From NCBI GenBank assembly GCA_963847625.1, contig CAWKAR010000019.1:1-64000 (forward strand): a stretch of DNA of 64,000 nucleotides, in the 5' to 3' direction. The DNA comes from a candidate division FCPU426 bacterium. GTDB lineage: Bacteria > Oederibacteriota > Muellerivitia > Muellerivitales > Muellerivitaceae. Made by a program: the position numbers. How positions within the stretch are numbered: position 1 is the first letter of the stretch; every line of letters begins with the position of its first letter. Below are positions 3,001 to 12,000 of the stretch, piece by piece.

Positions 3001-6000
3001 TTCTTTAAGGACTTATAAAGAACATCCCTTCCCTCTTGGGCCCGGCAAAGTAAAATTCTCTTCCCTTTCAATGCCATTTTATTGAACGCCCTGGCCAAAC
3101 CTTCCTGGTGAAAATCCTTGGGCACCAAATCCGATTTCAAACCAAAAGACCTTAAAGTTTTTGCGGTGGCTTCCCCGGCACAAGCGATCTTAACTTTACT
3201 CAGACGCCGGATATTTTTTTTTAATTTTTTCCAATGACCCATGAAAAGTTGAACCCCATTTGAGCTGTTGAAAACCAACCAATCATATTCATCCGCTTTC
3301 GCGACGAGTTTTTGCCCTGCCTTGCCCAAAGGGAGAGGAACAATTTCCGATACCGGGATTTCAATAGCCTCAAACACCCGCTTATCCAGCAAACCCGTCA
3401 AATAACCCGCTTGGGATTTTGCGCGGGTCACGAGAACCCTCCATCTTCGCCGGTGTTGAAACTGGTTGTTTTTTCCTGGCATCCGAATTTCCTTTAATTG
3501 TTGGTAAGTATCCCTTTACAACAAGTAAAAGCAAAAAGGCATGGAACCGCCGATCAAATCCAATGTCCCGCATCTCCATAAAGGAGTTAATGGATTGCGG
3601 GACAATACCACTTTCATTTGAAATCCTTTCAATAGTGAAGTGGCATGGACGCCGATAAGTTTGAGAAAGCCTTAAACTATAAGCCGTTATCGGCGTTTAT
3701 CGGTCGTTATCTGCGGTAAAAAAATTTCTTTACGTGTCGTGAAGGTATAGTCACCTTATTTATTTAGGTGAATCCACTAAGAATTATTGGATACGCCATT
3801 TTATGAGGTTAATATTGAAAAAAATAGATACGAAAACATTGTTGGAAATCCATGAATTACCGTCATTCCACAAGACGTTTTTCCGGCAAAAGACCCGAAT
3901 AGCTACGGTTTTATAGAGACCATCAGGAAGTAGCCCAATTTTCCATGTCGAATTGGAACCGCTTTCAATCTCGTTTTTAATTAACACGTGAAAGTTGAAA
4001 ATCATCCCGAAAAAAACCGGAACTATAATAAATCGGGTATATTCTTACTAAGAAAAAGCCATTTGAATAAAACAATATCTCAATATTAGGGAACCTCTTG
4101 AAAAGACCGGTCCTTCTCTTTTTCTCATACCTCTTTCACCATTTCTCCCCAACTGCTTTTAAAAATTTTATCCTTTACTGTTTTCGGATCGCAGCCCTCG
4201 GAATTTTTTTAATCTTCCTGCCCGAAAAATCCGTCTTTGCTGAATTGGCTACGCTTTACGTCTCTGGTAACCAGCTTACTACTTCCACCTCGGGCGGCTG
4301 TACGCTTAAATTAAAAGGTGTCAACATTGACGGGTTGGAGTTCTCGCCCTACGGGTATGGACCCGGAGGAAGCAGTTCCAATTGCGGGGGCTTTACCGGT
4401 AACAGCACCAACGGATGCGGTGGTAACACCCTGGCGGCGGCCCAGGAAGCGGTCACGGCCTGGCACGCCAATGTTATCCGGCTGCCCATGAACCAGGATT
4501 TTTGGTTTGGTTGCTCCAATTCGATCACCCAGATCGCCGCTTCACAATACCAGTCGGCCGTGTCCGCCATCGTCGGATATTGCGCCTCCAATAACGTTTA
4601 CATCATCCTGGATCTCCATTGGTCGGGCACCTCCAGCGGCACTACCTTTACCACTCCCTGCAGCGGGTCCGGCTGGGGTACGGCCACGGCGCAGGAAGCA
4701 ATGGCGGATGCCAACGCAGTTACCTTTTGGCAGTCCGTGGCCAGTATGTCCTGGACTAAGAATAACCCGGCAGTCATGTTCGACCTATACAACGAGCCCA
4801 CCAACATTACCGCGGCTTGCTGGGTGACCGGCGGTAGTACGGGCACGGGCAAGACACCCACCTGGACACCTGGAATGCAGGGACTTTTGGATGCCGTAAG
4901 GGGTGTGGGCGCCAATAATATCTGCCTGTTGGGCGGCTTGAACTGGTGTTCAAACCTGAAAAGTGTCCTCAGCGCCCCCGGACCCGTCACCAATACGGGC
5001 AATGGCGTCGTTTACTCGGCCCACTTTTATGGGCCCAATGACGGAACCACTCCCGTCAGTTGGAACGCGGACGTGCCATCAAGCGTCTTGTCCACCGCTC
5101 CTGTTTTCGTGGGCGAGTTTGGGGGAGCCACGACCTGCGGCACGGCACCGGATGACCCCACTTTCGATACCAATATGATCGGCACGTCGGGATGGGCAGT
5201 CACCACCACCGGGGTGGGGGGAGGCACCGGCTGGTCTTTCACCGATGATTCCTGCCCCAACATGCTTTCGGACTGGAGTTGGACTGCCAATGCCTGGGGT
5301 GCGGCCGTATCCACATGGCTGGCCACGCCTGTTCCCACCTGCCCCCCTGTCACCCCCGGCCCGACACTCACACCCACCCGGACTTATACCAATACCTACA
5401 CTTTTACAGTCACATCCACTTCCTCTTACACTTCTACCCAGACACGGACTCCCACCCTAACATCCACGAACACCGCAACCATTACACCTACTCCCACTTC
5501 GACCCGGACGAACACGCCTAACAATACACCGACTTATACGGTAACTAATACTTCCACGAACACTAGCACAAGCACCCCCACCCCGACCCGGACGAACACG
5601 CCCACGAATACCTCCACCCCGACGCCGACTTCGACTTTAACCAATACCCGGACCAATTCACCGACTAATACGGAATCCAGCACCTTCACAAATACTGCGA
5701 CTACAACGCCCACCCCAACCGCAACCCGGACAAACACGCCGACTTATTCAGTAACCAATACGCCTACGAATACCGCGACTGGAACAACTACCCCAACCCG
5801 GACGAACACGGCGACCAATACGTTCACGATTCTACCCACAAATACCCCAACCAACACTGCCACGAGCACGGCGACTTCCACCCCAACCGCAACCCGGACG
5901 AACACGGCGACTAATACTTTCACGATTGTACCCACGAATACCCCTACCAACACGGCCACGAGTACGGTGACAGCCACCTCCACTGCAACCCGGACGAACA

Positions 6001-9000: not shown

Positions 9001-12000
9001 CTTCAACCCCAACGGCAACCTCAACAAACACTCTTATGGCCGCTTCGACGGGAACAGCGACTCCGGTTGGGAAAAATGGAGTGGTTGTATATCCAAACCC
9101 GGTAAGCGGCCCGGGCCCGGTGACGATCAGGATCACTTTGACCCGAAAGGAATCGCTTGTTCGGGTTGAGATATTCACGCTGGCCTTCCGGAAGGTGAAT
9201 GAGATCGATCTGACACAAGCGCCGGCGGGAATTACCAATGTGGCCTTACCCCTGACGGACAAGGGAGGAATCCCCCTGGCCGACGGCCTTTATTACGTGG
9301 TTGTCCAAACGTCCCAGAGCAGTATCGTCAATAAATTGCTTGTCTTGAGATAAAATTTAGCGCAGAGTGCTGACGATACAGTGATTGATCACATGAGGCA
9401 AAAGCACAAAACGGACCCGCAAAACAACGGGAGTACCCTGCCTCCATTGTTTTAGTGTTTCGGTTGTTCCTAACGAAGGTACTGGATTTTGTTTTACACA
9501 TCACTTGGTTGAGTAAACCGGTTTTCACGTTCAAGGGGTTTCCCATGAACGGGGGCCGTTAACATCAAGTGAAATCGCCGGGAAAAATAGAAATGGCATT
9601 GAAAAAAAATATGGCTGGTTTCAATCGTCGTGCCCTTCGCATACCGCCGAAGCACAAGCCACGCAGACTGCTGAAACGCAAGCTACGGCGGGATCTCATG
9701 ACGCCCTTCCGGTTCTTTCTGGCAACTGTGGCCGCGTGGGCGGCACTATCTGCTTGCCTGGCGACCTTTCCCAATTTCAAGTGGTTGTTTCCTGGCATCG
9801 GCTTCTTGCCCTTCCAGCAGTCCTATGCGGTATTGGTGGCCGCTTTTCTGGCCATCGTCGCAGGTATGAGGTTTATGCCGGAAGGTGGCGGCCCCGCGTC
9901 GCCAAATTTGTCGCCGGGGTGGGCGCGTTTCTGGTTATTTTCGTTCCTGGCGGCCACGGCCGCCATGCGGTTGTACCATGCCAACATGGCGGAAGGCGCA
10001 TATTGGTGTGATGGCGCCATTGAGATCAAGGATATTCTCAACATTGCCGATTTTAAGGAATACAGTTTTATTATGCCGTGGGGAGGCCGGGAGCCGTTTT
10101 TCTCTTATCTCGGGGCGGTGGTACGGCATTTGCTTCCGGATGCTTCCGCCTTGTTTATCCAAAGATTTTCCCTGACCCTCATCGACATGGCGACCGTGTG
10201 GATTTGCTACCTCTTGGGGAAGGAAGTAAAGGGGAGGAGAGTAGGCGTTTTGTTGGCGGCCCTCGTCTCGATCAGCAAACCCATGATCCTGATGGACTTG
10301 GTCGGGTCGCGCCCGACGTGCATGGGGCTGGGCGTTTCACTCGCGTTGCTGTTCTTTTTCCGTTTGTTGCGAAAACCGGATATGGCCCACTTCCTCCAAT
10401 GGAGCGTGGCGGTCAGTTTCGGGATATACGGTTATTCGGCCTACCGGCCCTTTGTGCCTTTTTTCATTTTCGCCGTTTTGGCATGGGTTTTATATAGCGA
10501 GAAGCCGCGGGATTTGGACGCCGGGGGTAAGGTGTTGGCCGGCGGAATGGCCGTTTCCTTTTTGGTTTATTTCCTGTTTTTCAACGGTTATTGGCCGCAG
10601 GACGGCTGGCTTGCCCGCACGATCGCCGTTTCGGGTTTGTGGTTTCCGGGGATTGTTTTGGCCGTCCTGTTGATCTTGCTGGGGCGGTTCATATCCAACC
10701 CGCATCATCAGCGGAATCATTCGAAACTTATGGGTTGGGCCGTCGGCAGTTTCACGTGTTTTTTCCTGACCATTGCAATCATGACGAATCCGCTCATCAT
10801 AAATCGCCTCCAAAATTTATCGGTTTCGAATGGGGTTTTCAACTGGCAATTCCTGGAATCGGTCTTCCAGAAGTTATGTGTCACCTTGAGATTCCTGTTC
10901 ATCGGCGGGAGGGATCGGAGTGATTTCGAAATAGGGGGCGACGCTTTTTATGATTACCCTTCGATCGTTGTTATTGCACTGGGCCTGGCCTCTATGGTCG
11001 CAAGGCCAGGGTGGAAAAAAGGGACGCTTGTTTTGGCGGCCTTGGTGGGGGTTTCCACCCACGTTTTGTCCAACGATCCCCACAGCGGGAAAACGCTCGG
11101 ATCGGTTGTTCCGCTGCTGTTGCTGGGGTCCTTGGGAGCCGACCGTGTTTGGAGCGCCGCGGAAGAGCTTCCGCGGGGGCGTTGGCTTGGAAAGGTGGTG
11201 TTGGTTTTTTCTCTGGCATTCTGGGGTTGGTCCGCGTCGGTTAATTTCAACCGGATCTATGACCAATGGGCCGAAAGATGTTTCAGACCGGACGTTGTCG
11301 TGGCGCAGCAAGCTATCAAGGACGCCAAGGACTACAGGATTTACTTGGCGAATTTCGGGGATTATAAATCGGATTTTTGCGCCGGGGATACCCAAGCGAT
11401 TCTATTGGAAAGGCAACCGGTGCGCGTGTTGTTTGGGAGCAATCCGATTGATATGAAGCCCGGGGCGCAGGCAAAAGATGTTGTGGTGCTTCTATCCGCG
11501 ACAAATCAGCAAGGCTTGGAGGATCTCATCCGGCGGCAATATCCTACGGCCCAATGGTCCGAAGTATACAACCCTCCCCAAGCGTCGGAACATACGCGCG
11601 TGGCGTTGCGTGTTCAAATACCATTCGATGCCATTTCCGGAAACCCTGAAAAAAAGGCCGCGGGGGCCAATGTCAAAGCGCTTTTTTACCGGCGGAACGC
11701 CCCGGAACAGTCCTGGACGAGGATATACATTTTCGGCCATGCAGGCGTAAGAAATAGTTTCATTTGGTGGGAGGATCAAGCCACCGATCTCAACGCTCCC
11801 CATCCGGGTGAGGAAGGGGCCCACATCGCGGATTATACCGGCGATTTATACGTCAATCATCCGGATAAATACCGGATATTATTTAAATCGAGCAGCTATG
11901 TCATCCTATCCATCGATGGGAAGAAAATATTCGATGTACGCCCCTCCGGCGTTCCGGCGAAGATGGGAGAGAAAGTCATATCCCTTGAAGCCGGAAACCA

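Follow-up and report, generated by a model that had tools for sequence, protein, structure and literature searches.

Threonine-alternating tracts as putative stalks of sorting-domain proteins in a candidate division FCPU426 bacterium

Introduction

What might be gained from a protein segment of more than a thousand residues in which every second residue is threonine? The question is raised by a stretch of 64,000 nucleotides (the window) from a candidate division FCPU426 bacterium, in which such a tract joins a cellulase domain to a C-terminal sorting domain. We propose, with a probability of roughly 60%, that these tracts are extended non-globular stalks between the sorting domain and the head, most likely densely O-glycosylated on Thr/Ser. 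No description of them was found in the literature searched, which stopped short of subscription papers and bioRxiv supplements; Doud et al. (PMC7031533) use neither "threonine" nor "linker" in the main text or five supplementary files.

Architecture of the focal protein

The preliminary description had placed the gene in an uncalled frame at 4071-9350 on the plus strand. This frame is indeed stop-free over 1,760 codons, and its start is a TTG at 4098, with a purine-rich SD-like stretch immediately 5' and identical first residues in the congener's orthologue.

4098..9353, plus strand: focal gene, 1,751 aa from TTG, with probable signal peptide, GH5 domain, putative (T/S-x)n stalk and T9SS-type C-terminal domain
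4098..4241, plus strand: probable long Sec signal peptide, 48 aa, recognized by eye in the translation
4389..5141, plus strand: GH5 catalytic domain (PF00150, E 8.8e-34)
5343..9065, plus strand: (T/S-x)n tract, 1,241 residues, single phase, no slip
5790..6139, plus strand: 96-nt internal repeat, about 3.5 copies
6543..8017, plus strand: 300-nt (100-residue) internal repeat, 4.9 copies, 94% matches
9066..9350, plus strand: C-terminal sorting domain, FlgD_ig/T9SS type A-like (PF13860, E 3.4e-8)

Aligned to PDB 5a8m, the GH5 domain retains both catalytic Glu motifs (NEP and GEF); it has the two catalytic glutamates of the GH5 barrel, and is predicted to be active. The whole head is 88% identical to that of the congener. 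In the tract, T/S occupies 96.9% of the fixed positions (721 hydroxyl residues), and the longest T/S alternation runs for 133 steps, whereas none of 200 shuffles exceeds 20. The tract matched nothing in Pfam and gave only leads to sorting domains in the ESM Atlas, all below 0.9, while AlphaFold2 modelled a 300-aa part of it at pLDDT 37 with no globular fold, a value of low confidence either way. The sorting domain resembles Por_Secre_tail domains in the ESM Atlas (0.92) and scores 21.4 bits with TIGR04183 (cut-off 23), with which another cargo protein reaches 39.1. A promoter and terminator scan stayed at chance level. No RNA sequencing run was listed as containing the sequence, and three DNA runs were, at a small share.

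Tracts, heads, and missed genes across the genome

The 81 (T-x)n frames of the preliminary description were regained with an identical six-frame filter, and the composition of x was reproduced over them (now P 41%, N 17%, S 10%). Its set of large tracts was recovered with other figures: in place of 56 frames of at least 300 tract residues, 56,472 residues, and 3.8% of the genome, we count 61 frames, 61,526 residues, and 4.2%, because the tract window is defined differently (our totals use our own definition, with large meaning at least 300 tract residues). Over the 81 frames, T-phase positions are 91.7% T and 5.1% S, all four ACN codons are represented, and phase shifts number 31 in total; Pro recurs at x mostly every 2-4 residues. 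Each of the 59 tandem-repeat rows has a period divisible by 6, ranging from 6 to 300 nt. The tract makes up 60-80% of the giant proteins, extends up to 1,700 residues, and without exception separates the head from the sorting domain, ending 86-97 residues before the C-terminus in 32 of the 81 frames. Hydrophobic x residues increase reproducibly toward the sorting domain, and aromatic x residues amount to 9-11% at either tract end. Some frames are interrupted or extend past the end of their contig.

The general build, with probable signal peptide, head, tract of about 1,000 residues, and T9SS-type sorting domain, stands as it was claimed. Glycoside hydrolases do occur among the heads as stated, but make up just 7 of 38 heads from the largest proteins; a single CBM67-like lectin family accounts for 14 of the 38, so that the commonest head among giants is a lectin-like fold and not an enzyme. 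The window contains one such giant, with an antisense frame across its tract.

46621..52200, minus strand: second giant, with CBM67-like and Ig head, 1,393-residue tract, and sorting domain
51082..52050, minus strand: Pfam-less head, a CBM67/fungal-lectin-like beta-sandwich followed by an Ig-like domain
46903..51081, minus strand: (T/S-x)n tract of the second giant
47675..50764, plus strand: antisense shadow ORF, 1,029 aa, V-x-V-x, with no Pfam or NCBIfam match

This head type forms the largest paralogue family among the giants. Its fold and an invariant Asp-Asp pair, which presumably has a calcium role, are common to a Pleurotus ostreatus lectin (6kbj; Z 9.9, rmsd 2.9, 123 aligned) and a rhamnosidase domain (3w5n; Z 9.6, rmsd 3.5, 128 aligned), folds to which we take the label CBM67 to apply; identity is 17-20%, the Z scores are only moderately above background, and the head is cysteine-rich here, unlike these structures. 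Foldseek returned only poor matches for it (TM at most 0.25).

That gene calling misses such proteins is supported indirectly: a collection of 15 billion proteins lacks the focal cellulase, its orthologue in the congener, and 13 giants with lectin heads, and carbohydrate-active enzyme inventories of the lineage therefore undercount. The 164 antisense V-x calls said to take their place fared less well, for such ORFs exist but none of 11 exact look-ups, with one start each, found a match. A homologue search with the antisense ORFs produced only two unrelated V-rich proteins. The shadow ORF at 47675..50764 is likewise absent from the collection from that start, and it is not a gene.

Distribution in the phylum

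Runs of 21 codons with alternating Thr occur in 81 of 99 phylum genomes and in none of the 18 from five families (f3-f7), the genome counts of the preliminary description, and the reversed-pattern control is 0 in this genome. All 37 longer relatives of the focal GH5 have a tract (79-574 residues) and 35 a sorting domain; the GH5 loci sampled outside the lineage (five Bacillota and one other bacterium) have no tract. The 18 tract-less genomes all retain SprA, PorV, and sorting-domain cargo, and at the loci sampled in their families 11 of 11 sorting-domain proteins have ordinary domains in the tract's place. Family f3, with no tract, possesses many GT-C genes, GH5, SprA, PorV, and 29-47 sorting-domain matches; family f9 has tracts, yet GH5 in just 1 of 11 genomes.

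Selection, duplication, and phase

Across 298 internal duplications, pN/pS is 0.065 at T positions versus 0.31 at x positions, the former being lowered by construction since the T-phase label requires 8 of 10 Thr per window. Single-step changes from Thr lead to Ser in 158 of 216 cases (73%, with 23% expected from third-position rates), to Ala in 19, and to Ile/Met in 32. Taken together, the low pN/pS and the Ser-biased changes indicate that the hydroxyl is kept by selection, and the substitution bias lends real support to O-glycosylation of the tracts. The duplication lag is divisible by 6 in 295 of 298 cases. Two observations concern these measures themselves: the 8/10-Thr labelling does not bias Ser against Ala/Ile, and even lags are also expected from in-register recombination alone.

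Five 300-nt copies in the focal tract show 3-36 differences from one another, chiefly at third positions, with only 3 in the closest pair. The tract measures 1,241 residues versus 927 in the congener orthologue, both slip-free, and the x residues of the two agree at 47% of aligned positions, as against 33-42% in shuffles and up to 51% in unrelated tracts; the in-between residues have turned over almost fully.

Export machinery

A genome-built profile places the sorting domain at the extreme C-terminus in 115 of 115 matches, 95 of which have at least 10 alternating T/S and 13 no tract. Probable Sec signal peptides of the cargo are visible by eye in the translations. An SprA/Sov translocon is encoded (TIGR04189, 236 bits; NCBIfam cut-off 200), and 92 of the 99 phylum genomes have SprA matches, 7 of them above the cut-off. 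Pfam SprA_N missed the SprA of this genome, which NCBIfam detected. Another locus considered as a translocon (C39:44568-49994) was rejected, as it is an autotransporter. Sixteen PorV-family genes are present, seven just after cargo genes and four fused to OmpA; two lie in the window.

29852..30808, minus strand: PorV/PorQ-family outer-membrane barrel (NF033709, 172 bits, cut-off 90)
39025..40023, minus strand: second PorV-family barrel (87 bits, slightly below the cut-off)

The former is our top candidate for a general shuttle. Complexes like that of sorting domain and PorV have already been solved, and hence our model of the focal sorting domain with this barrel shows likeness to them; it scores 0.79 (best of three controls 0.00), with contact agreement of at least 90% and a partner pLDDT of 80, a mark that 51 of 78 solved complexes attain, as do 2 of 108 mismatched pairs. 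Among the 61 largest-tract genes, only 3 have a PorV-family neighbor, and their tracts do not exceed 600 residues, so that anchoring of the giants is no more than presumed. The PorU sortase (C25 peptidase, PF01364) was found in 0 of 31 family genomes; matches in 8 of 99 phylum genomes show that this search detects C25 peptidases, and the negative covers these rather than a remote or unrelated sortase. PorP, GldL, GldM, and GldN were not found in this genome (94% complete), and neither these searches nor a further one for PorU matched a control genome.

Candidate glycosyltransferases

Two GT-C-like genes lie 3' of the focal gene; the syntenic locus of the congener has neither.

9569..12115, plus strand: probable GT-C membrane glycosyltransferase, a weak assignment (no Pfam match; TIGR04154, E 0.005)
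12319..14880, plus strand: GT-C glycosyltransferase (PMT_2 and PA14)

The suggested link between a GT-C expansion and O-glycosylation found no support, as the distribution of the GT-C profiles (PMT_2, PMT) differs from that of the tracts: PMT_2 has 15-33 matches in tract-less family f3, and PF02366 has 10 matches in this genome, the best of them weak (E 4.9e-13), and is strongest in tract-less f5. A PMT_2 gene beside sprA in families f8 and f9 was dismissed as the tract transferase because it is part of an lptF/lptG operon and BLAST finds no counterpart to it in this genome.

A proposal for the tracts and its alternatives

On the stalk reading, the proteins would reach the periplasm by Sec export, as the signal peptides suggest, and their hydroxyls would be glycosylated, probably by a lipid-linked GT-C enzyme. 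A PorV-family barrel would then take the C-terminal domain through the SprA translocon, for which the genes are present, the binding is modelled, and transport is presumed. Given that the PorU sortase was not found, the sorting domain is probably uncleaved, and might be retained on the barrel or released; a barrel gene, sometimes OmpA-fused, follows a minority of cargo genes. By analogy, the stalk, which would span about 300-400 nm when extended, might be protease-resistant and keep lectin, expansin-like, and glycoside hydrolase heads off the cell. Its length would change through in-register duplications with an even codon number, the hydroxyl and phase being under selection and the order of the other residues not.

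Several other readings deserve consideration. One is an unmodified spacer, in which Thr, Ser, Pro, and Asn form a soluble, stiff, protease-poor chain without sugar, with a length owed largely to runaway duplication, in proteins that are released. Free variation in length (1,241 versus 927 in the orthologue; 79-574 in 37 relatives), the failure of any transferase profile to match the tracts, and the missing sortase are in keeping with it; we nevertheless find it rather unlikely, as a plain spacer needs neither the strict two-residue phase nor the Ser preference, 4% of the genome is much to spend on it, and the hydrophobic-x gradient toward the sorting domain is reproducible. It is unlikely, too, that the main function resides in the glycosylated tract, as a sticky coat or matrix that attaches to cellulose or peat particles and shields the cell, with the head secondary. 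Glycosylated linkers do raise the substrate affinity of a fungal cellulase, as cited in PMC6151902, and a tract share of 60-80% in giants, the prevalence of lectin-like or unassigned heads, and the near-absence of GH5 from tract-bearing f9 agree with such a role, but the heads are under strong selection (88% identity to the congener) and the tract always runs from head to sorting domain. This reading and that of a stalk are compatible.

The T-x alternation is the classic pattern of a one-faced beta strand, and the tracts could form a Thr-faced beta-solenoid or cross-beta fibre on ice or crystalline cellulose, comparable to TxT ice-binding proteins. AlphaFold2 does place short strands on proline-free stretches of the 100-residue repeat, and aromatic x residues mark both tract ends. 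However, Pro at 41% of x, mostly one per 2-4 residues, and substitution by the poor beta former Ser over Ile/Val make this improbable, as does the model, which has no solenoid (pLDDT 37, low confidence either way); and where TxT beta-solenoids have a fixed short period, those here range from 6 to 300 nt. Quite improbable is an aid to export, whereby an unfolded glycosylated segment biases passage through the SprA pore without a GldLM motor: motor genes were not found in this genome, and 95 of 115 cargo proteins have the tract beside the sorting domain, but 13 are tract-free, and SprA, PorV, and cargo persist in all 18 genomes that lack tracts. Finally, broken frames and two 300-nt copies with only 3 differences might hint at an assembly or DNA-repeat artefact; this we consider negligible, since the copies diverge at third positions and the congener has its own 927-residue tract, and four Thr codons are used and 81 of 99 genomes have tracts.

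Returning to the stalk reading, one might tentatively extend it to a brush of 300-400 nm glycosylated Thr filaments, held by uncleaved sorting domains on PorV-family barrels without a sortase, tipped with dozens of variable lectins together with expansin-like proteins and cellulases, and exported through SprA without the GldLM motor. Such a brush, which we regard as possible rather than likely, would be a third mode of cell-bound polysaccharide attack and adhesion beside cellulosomes and the Bacteroidota system, mostly hidden from databases, as the longest genes escape gene callers. A chemistry familiar from short linkers here takes up about 4% of the genome and reaches most of the secretome; the lineage is diderm, and its T9SS-like pore seemingly has neither sortase nor motor. 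If glycosylated, the tracts, of which the focal one by itself offers 721 hydroxyl sites, would bear one of the heaviest bacterial protein O-glycosylation loads and imply an as yet undescribed transferase.

Comparison with known systems

The Thr/Pro linkers between cellulase domains are tens of residues long, whereas the tracts here extend over 1,000-1,700 residues. The tracts further differ in that x is only 41% Pro, in joining a head to a sorting domain, and in occurring on most cargo, and no GT39 enzyme could be assigned to them. Like an O-glycosylated Pro/Thr linker, they are by sequence extracellular, with alternating Thr and a Pro-rich x. The linkers of Caldicellulosiruptor bescii CelA and the Cellulomonas fimi PT box share with them alternating Thr-x, secreted glycoside hydrolases, and likely O-glycosylation and protease resistance; in CelA, the alternating Thr/Pro linkers undergo GT39-dependent glycosylation and are protected from cleavage (PMC6151902).

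Serine-rich repeat proteins (SRRPs), with O-glycosylated alternating-serine repeats, offer a second parallel: as described in PMC6973325, GspB, Fap1, PsrP, SraP, and Lactobacillus SRRP have a signal peptide, probable in the giants as well, and share with the giants a binding head, a long alternating hydroxy repeat, and a C-terminal sorting signal. In the giants the repeat is of Thr (91.7%) instead of the alternating Ser that marks SRRPs, the C-terminus is FlgD_ig-type in SprA/PorV style without an LPxTG anchor, the host is diderm, paralogues number dozens versus one to three, and some heads are enzymatic.

In the Bacteroidota T9SS, type A cargo uses PorV and type B cargo cognate PorP/SprF shuttles, and a review confines CTD proteins to Bacteroidota. 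Features described for that system (PMC12618676, PMC10202324) recur in this genome: SprA, PorV-family barrels, a C-terminal beta-sandwich signal, cargo-adjacent shuttle genes, and an OmpA-type partner for cell-wall anchoring, here at the level of genes. This genome departs from that system in that PorU, PorP, GldL, GldM, and GldN were not found in it, and in that its putative cognate shuttles are of the PorV family, four of them with OmpA in the same chain.

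Architecture and occurrence of the giant proteins

The focal protein combines a catalytic head with a tract in which Thr or Ser occupies every second residue, and a second giant lies on the opposite strand of the window.

4071..9350, + strand: stop-free frame of 1,760 codons, from translation
4098, + strand: probable TTG start of the focal gene (4098..9353)
46621..52200, - strand: second giant, with 1,393 tract residues

Translation and a Pfam search recovered the frame with a GH5 domain and a long tract claimed in the preliminary description. After a long N-terminal stretch that by eye resembles a signal peptide come the GH5 domain (PF00150, E 8.8e-34), in which the two catalytic glutamate motifs are present, then 1,241 tract residues with 96.9% Thr/Ser at alternate positions and zero phase slips, and finally a 95-residue C-terminal sorting domain of the FlgD_ig/Por_Secre_tail type. 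The longest T/S alternation in this tract is 133 steps; 200 shuffles reach 20 at most.

The filter used earlier returned the identical set of 81 frames genome-wide. At their fixed positions Thr accounts for 91.7% and Ser for 5.1% of residues, with all four Thr codons in use, and the in-between (x) positions are 41% Pro, 17% Asn, and 10% Ser; phase shifts total 31, and 1,707 residues is the greatest length without one. With our own tract definition, the earlier tally of 56 frames holding 300 or more tract residues (56,472 residues, 3.8% of the genome) becomes 61 (61,526 residues, 4.2%), some tract lengths being uncertain because several other frames are broken or reach contig ends. Of the 99 genomes of the phylum, 81 contain a run of 21 alternating Thr codons and the 18 from families f3 to f7 contain none, which is the spread first described. 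Along long tracts, the Pro fraction falls from about 0.5 to 0.3 approaching the sorting domain, and aromatic residues are concentrated at both ends.

The tract pattern is not an artefact. The congener orthologue occupies the corresponding site, with hemD on one side and hemC on the other, and has a single-phase tract of 927 residues; five 300-nt copies within the focal tract differ pairwise at 3 to 36 sites, chiefly third codon positions. Parts of the hem cluster (1642..3482 and 15194..17539, - strand) flank the focal gene, which lies with two GT-C-like (membrane glycosyltransferase) genes between hemC and hemD; in the congener it stands alone at that site. The window also carries two transposases.

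104..1210, + strand: IS110-family transposase
55993..56973, + strand: IS30-like transposase

Representation in protein databases

Three ordinary genes of the window are present in a collection of 15 billion proteins. A focal GH5 query against proteins of 644 to 2,000 residues (8,000 candidates scored; short fragments would escape) returned 37 relatives at up to 78% identity, all with tracts (longest 574 residues), and neither the focal protein nor its 88% congener orthologue was among them. Likewise, a query with the lectin-like head described below returned 0 of 13 close in-range paralogues from the source genome (8,000 candidates scored; short fragments would escape). The claim that gene calling missed the giants thus gains indirect support; one 1,612-codon frame is present as a 967-residue piece, and the collection does contain tracts of 565 to 630 residues. 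The antisense V-x frames, said to have been called instead, do exist, but 0 of 11 exact look-ups matched, so that their called status was not borne out. Two public V-x-rich proteins (P0022 and P0023) have the appearance of other repetitive genes read on the antisense strand.

Selection on the tracts

The focal protein and its congener orthologue share 88% identity in the head and 66% in the sorting domain, and the x residues show 47% aligned identity, against 33 to 42% in 20 shuffles and up to 51% between unrelated tracts of the same genome. Internal duplications with 88% identity or more over 90 nt, in tracts of at least 150 residues, number 298; in 295 of them the lag is divisible by 6, a preference for even lags that in-register recombination alone would also produce. 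Over these duplications pN/pS is 0.065 at Thr positions, a value lowered by construction since the label requires 8 of 10 Thr per window, and 0.31 at other positions. Free of this bias is the spectrum of 216 single-step changes from Thr: 158 (73%) lead to Ser, 19 to Ala, 32 to Ile/Met, 5 to Pro, and 2 to Asn, whereas the shares expected from third-position rates are 23% for Ser, 24% for Ala, and 26% for Ile/Met. The excess of Ser therefore indicates conservation of the hydroxyl rather than of the beta-branch.

Heads and cargo

A sorting-domain profile, which favours tract proteins as it was built from 51 of their C-termini, matched 115 frames in the genome, always at the C-terminus; alternating T/S numbers at least 10 in 95 of them, 5 to 9 in 7, and fewer in 13. 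We examined 38 heads drawn from the 61 largest-tract frames. Seven are glycoside hydrolases by Pfam (two GH5, two GH8, GH9, GH12, and GH30), four are DPBB/Barwin expansin-like, three belong to propeller families, four have only DUF11/PA14/DUF7507, and 20 lack a Pfam match. Fourteen of the 38, together with the head of the second giant, belong to a single family of close paralogues, to which four weaker members can be added. Structures that resemble a model of this head (14-row alignment, pLDDT 67.6), at Z scores only moderately above background, include a lectin from Pleurotus (6kbj; 123 residues aligned, Z 9.9, rmsd 2.9) and domains of rhamnosidases, for example 3w5n (128 residues aligned, Z 9.6, rmsd 3.5). 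In the model an Ig-like domain comes next after the lectin-like one; a Foldseek search with it gave no useful match. An Asp-Asp pair is invariant in the family and presumably corresponds to the calcium site of CBM67, a label that we take to fit this head. As the largest head family is lectin-like by its modelled fold, the commonest giant is lectin-like rather than an enzyme.

In two tandem GH5 genes (L003:7800-15058) the heads differ and all that lies behind them, namely distal tract, Ig domain, and sorting domain, is almost identical, which suggests module swapping or gene conversion. Further, a 414-residue C-terminal module of DUF11 and several FlgD_ig-like units (C49:95637-96878; locus L074) is common to at least seven giants.

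Probable export machinery

C45:145439..151486: SprA/Sov translocon, 236 bits (cut-off 200)
C26, C13, C6, and C3 (loci L093, L097, L099, and L105): four PorV-family barrels fused to an OmpA peptidoglycan-binding domain, three with an internal FlgD_ig domain

SprA is matched in 92 of 99 phylum genomes, including all 18 tract-less ones. Seven of the 16 PorV-family genes of the genome lie behind a gene for cargo (proteins bearing the sorting domain), at a distance of up to about 210 nt from the match, and three more follow frames whose ends look sorting-domain-like by eye; other fusions carry FN3 or TPR. Among the 61 genes with the largest tracts, just 3 have a PorV-family neighbour, and none of the three exceeds 600 tract residues. 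When the PorV-family barrel encoded in the window was modelled in complex with the focal sorting domain, the score was 0.79 against 0.00 for the best control (contacts agreeing at least 90%, partner pLDDT 80). Of 78 complexes with solved structures 51 reach that mark, as do 2 of 108 mismatched pairs; as complexes of this kind have presumably been solved already, the model shows likeness. The C25 peptidase of the PorU sortase was found in none of the 31 family genomes and in 8 of 99 phylum-wide. Searches of the genome for PorP, GldN, GldM, and GldL gave no match and were equally silent in control genomes. A review lists motor, ring, and translocon as the T9SS core and describes cargo with such sorting domains as restricted to Bacteroidota (PMC10202324). 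The cargo with adjoining or OmpA-fused PorV-family genes resembles the type B cargo of Flavobacterium, which has cognate shuttles and is anchored to the cell wall (PMC12618676).

Directly after sprA lies a gene for a 1,580-residue protein (C45:151450-156225, + strand; L017:13487-18229) with no Pfam match, short Thr-Pro inserts, and a sorting domain. Its homologues stand behind sprA in 6 of 10 other loci, tract-less f3 among them, making it a candidate conserved SprA partner.

Tract-less families and glycosyltransferases

The tract-less family f3 has SprA, PorV, GH5, 29 to 47 sorting-domain matches, and 15 to 33 PMT_2 matches, so that GT-C number is no predictor of tracts. The strongest PF02366 matches belong to the tract-less family f5, the best in the source genome being weak; the suggested tie between GT-C paralogues and O-glycosylation of the tracts gains no support from either profile. 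In family f9, tracts are present and GH5 occurs in 1 of 11 genomes only; the tract is therefore not tied to cellulases.

GT-C-like genes also occur elsewhere in the window.

40972..43359, + strand: zinc-ribbon and GT-C protein, above the TIGR03663 (Agl23) cut-off
57808..62036, - strand: three adjoining membrane-type genes without a Pfam match, one with weak GT-C matches (TIGR03663, mannosyltransferase)

In five genomes of families f8 and f9 (L024-L028; G023, G019, G022, G027, and G033), a PMT_2 gene, probably LPS-related, stands first in an lptF/lptG operon that diverges from sprA. A PMT-like gene adjoins a GH5 gene divergently in 4 of 4 genomes of genus g15 (G064:C3, G065:C201, G066:C17, and G067:C26), which counts as one event.

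Proposed role and relation to known systems

Taking these findings together, we propose, with a probability of roughly 0.6, that the tract is an O-glycosylated stalk. Its Thr and Ser residues would be glycosylated in the periplasm, the protein would leave through SprA, the sorting domain would be retained, and the stalk would hold the heads away from the cell. At 0.25 to 0.33 nm per residue, an extended chain of this kind might reach about 300 to 400 nm.

That the tract is a bare spacer we consider unlikely, and that it is itself the working part, as a sticky coat, quite unlikely. A beta structure is improbable, as the changes from Thr spare the hydroxyl and not the beta-branch; AlphaFold2, given 300 tract residues without an alignment, produced no fold (pLDDT 37), which is weak evidence either way. 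A role in export is highly improbable: the tract-less families keep SprA, PorV, and sorting-domain proteins, all 11 such proteins in their sampled loci having ordinary domains beside the sorting signal, and tracts are therefore not needed for export.

Our search of the published literature found no description of the tracts, and they are not mentioned in the passages and five supplements of PMC7031533, a genome study of what is probably this lineage. The giants are notable for their scale, their lectin-headed family, and the apparently reduced secretion system. In CelA of Caldicellulosiruptor, linkers of alternating Thr and Pro are glycosylated in a manner that depends on a GT39, and the glycosylation guards against cleavage (PMC6151902). 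Serine-rich repeat proteins, with alternating Ser, LPxTG, and SecA2/Y2, share the overall plan of the giants (PMC6973325). By analogy, the giants would work like both the CelA linkers and the serine-rich repeat proteins, belonging to neither.
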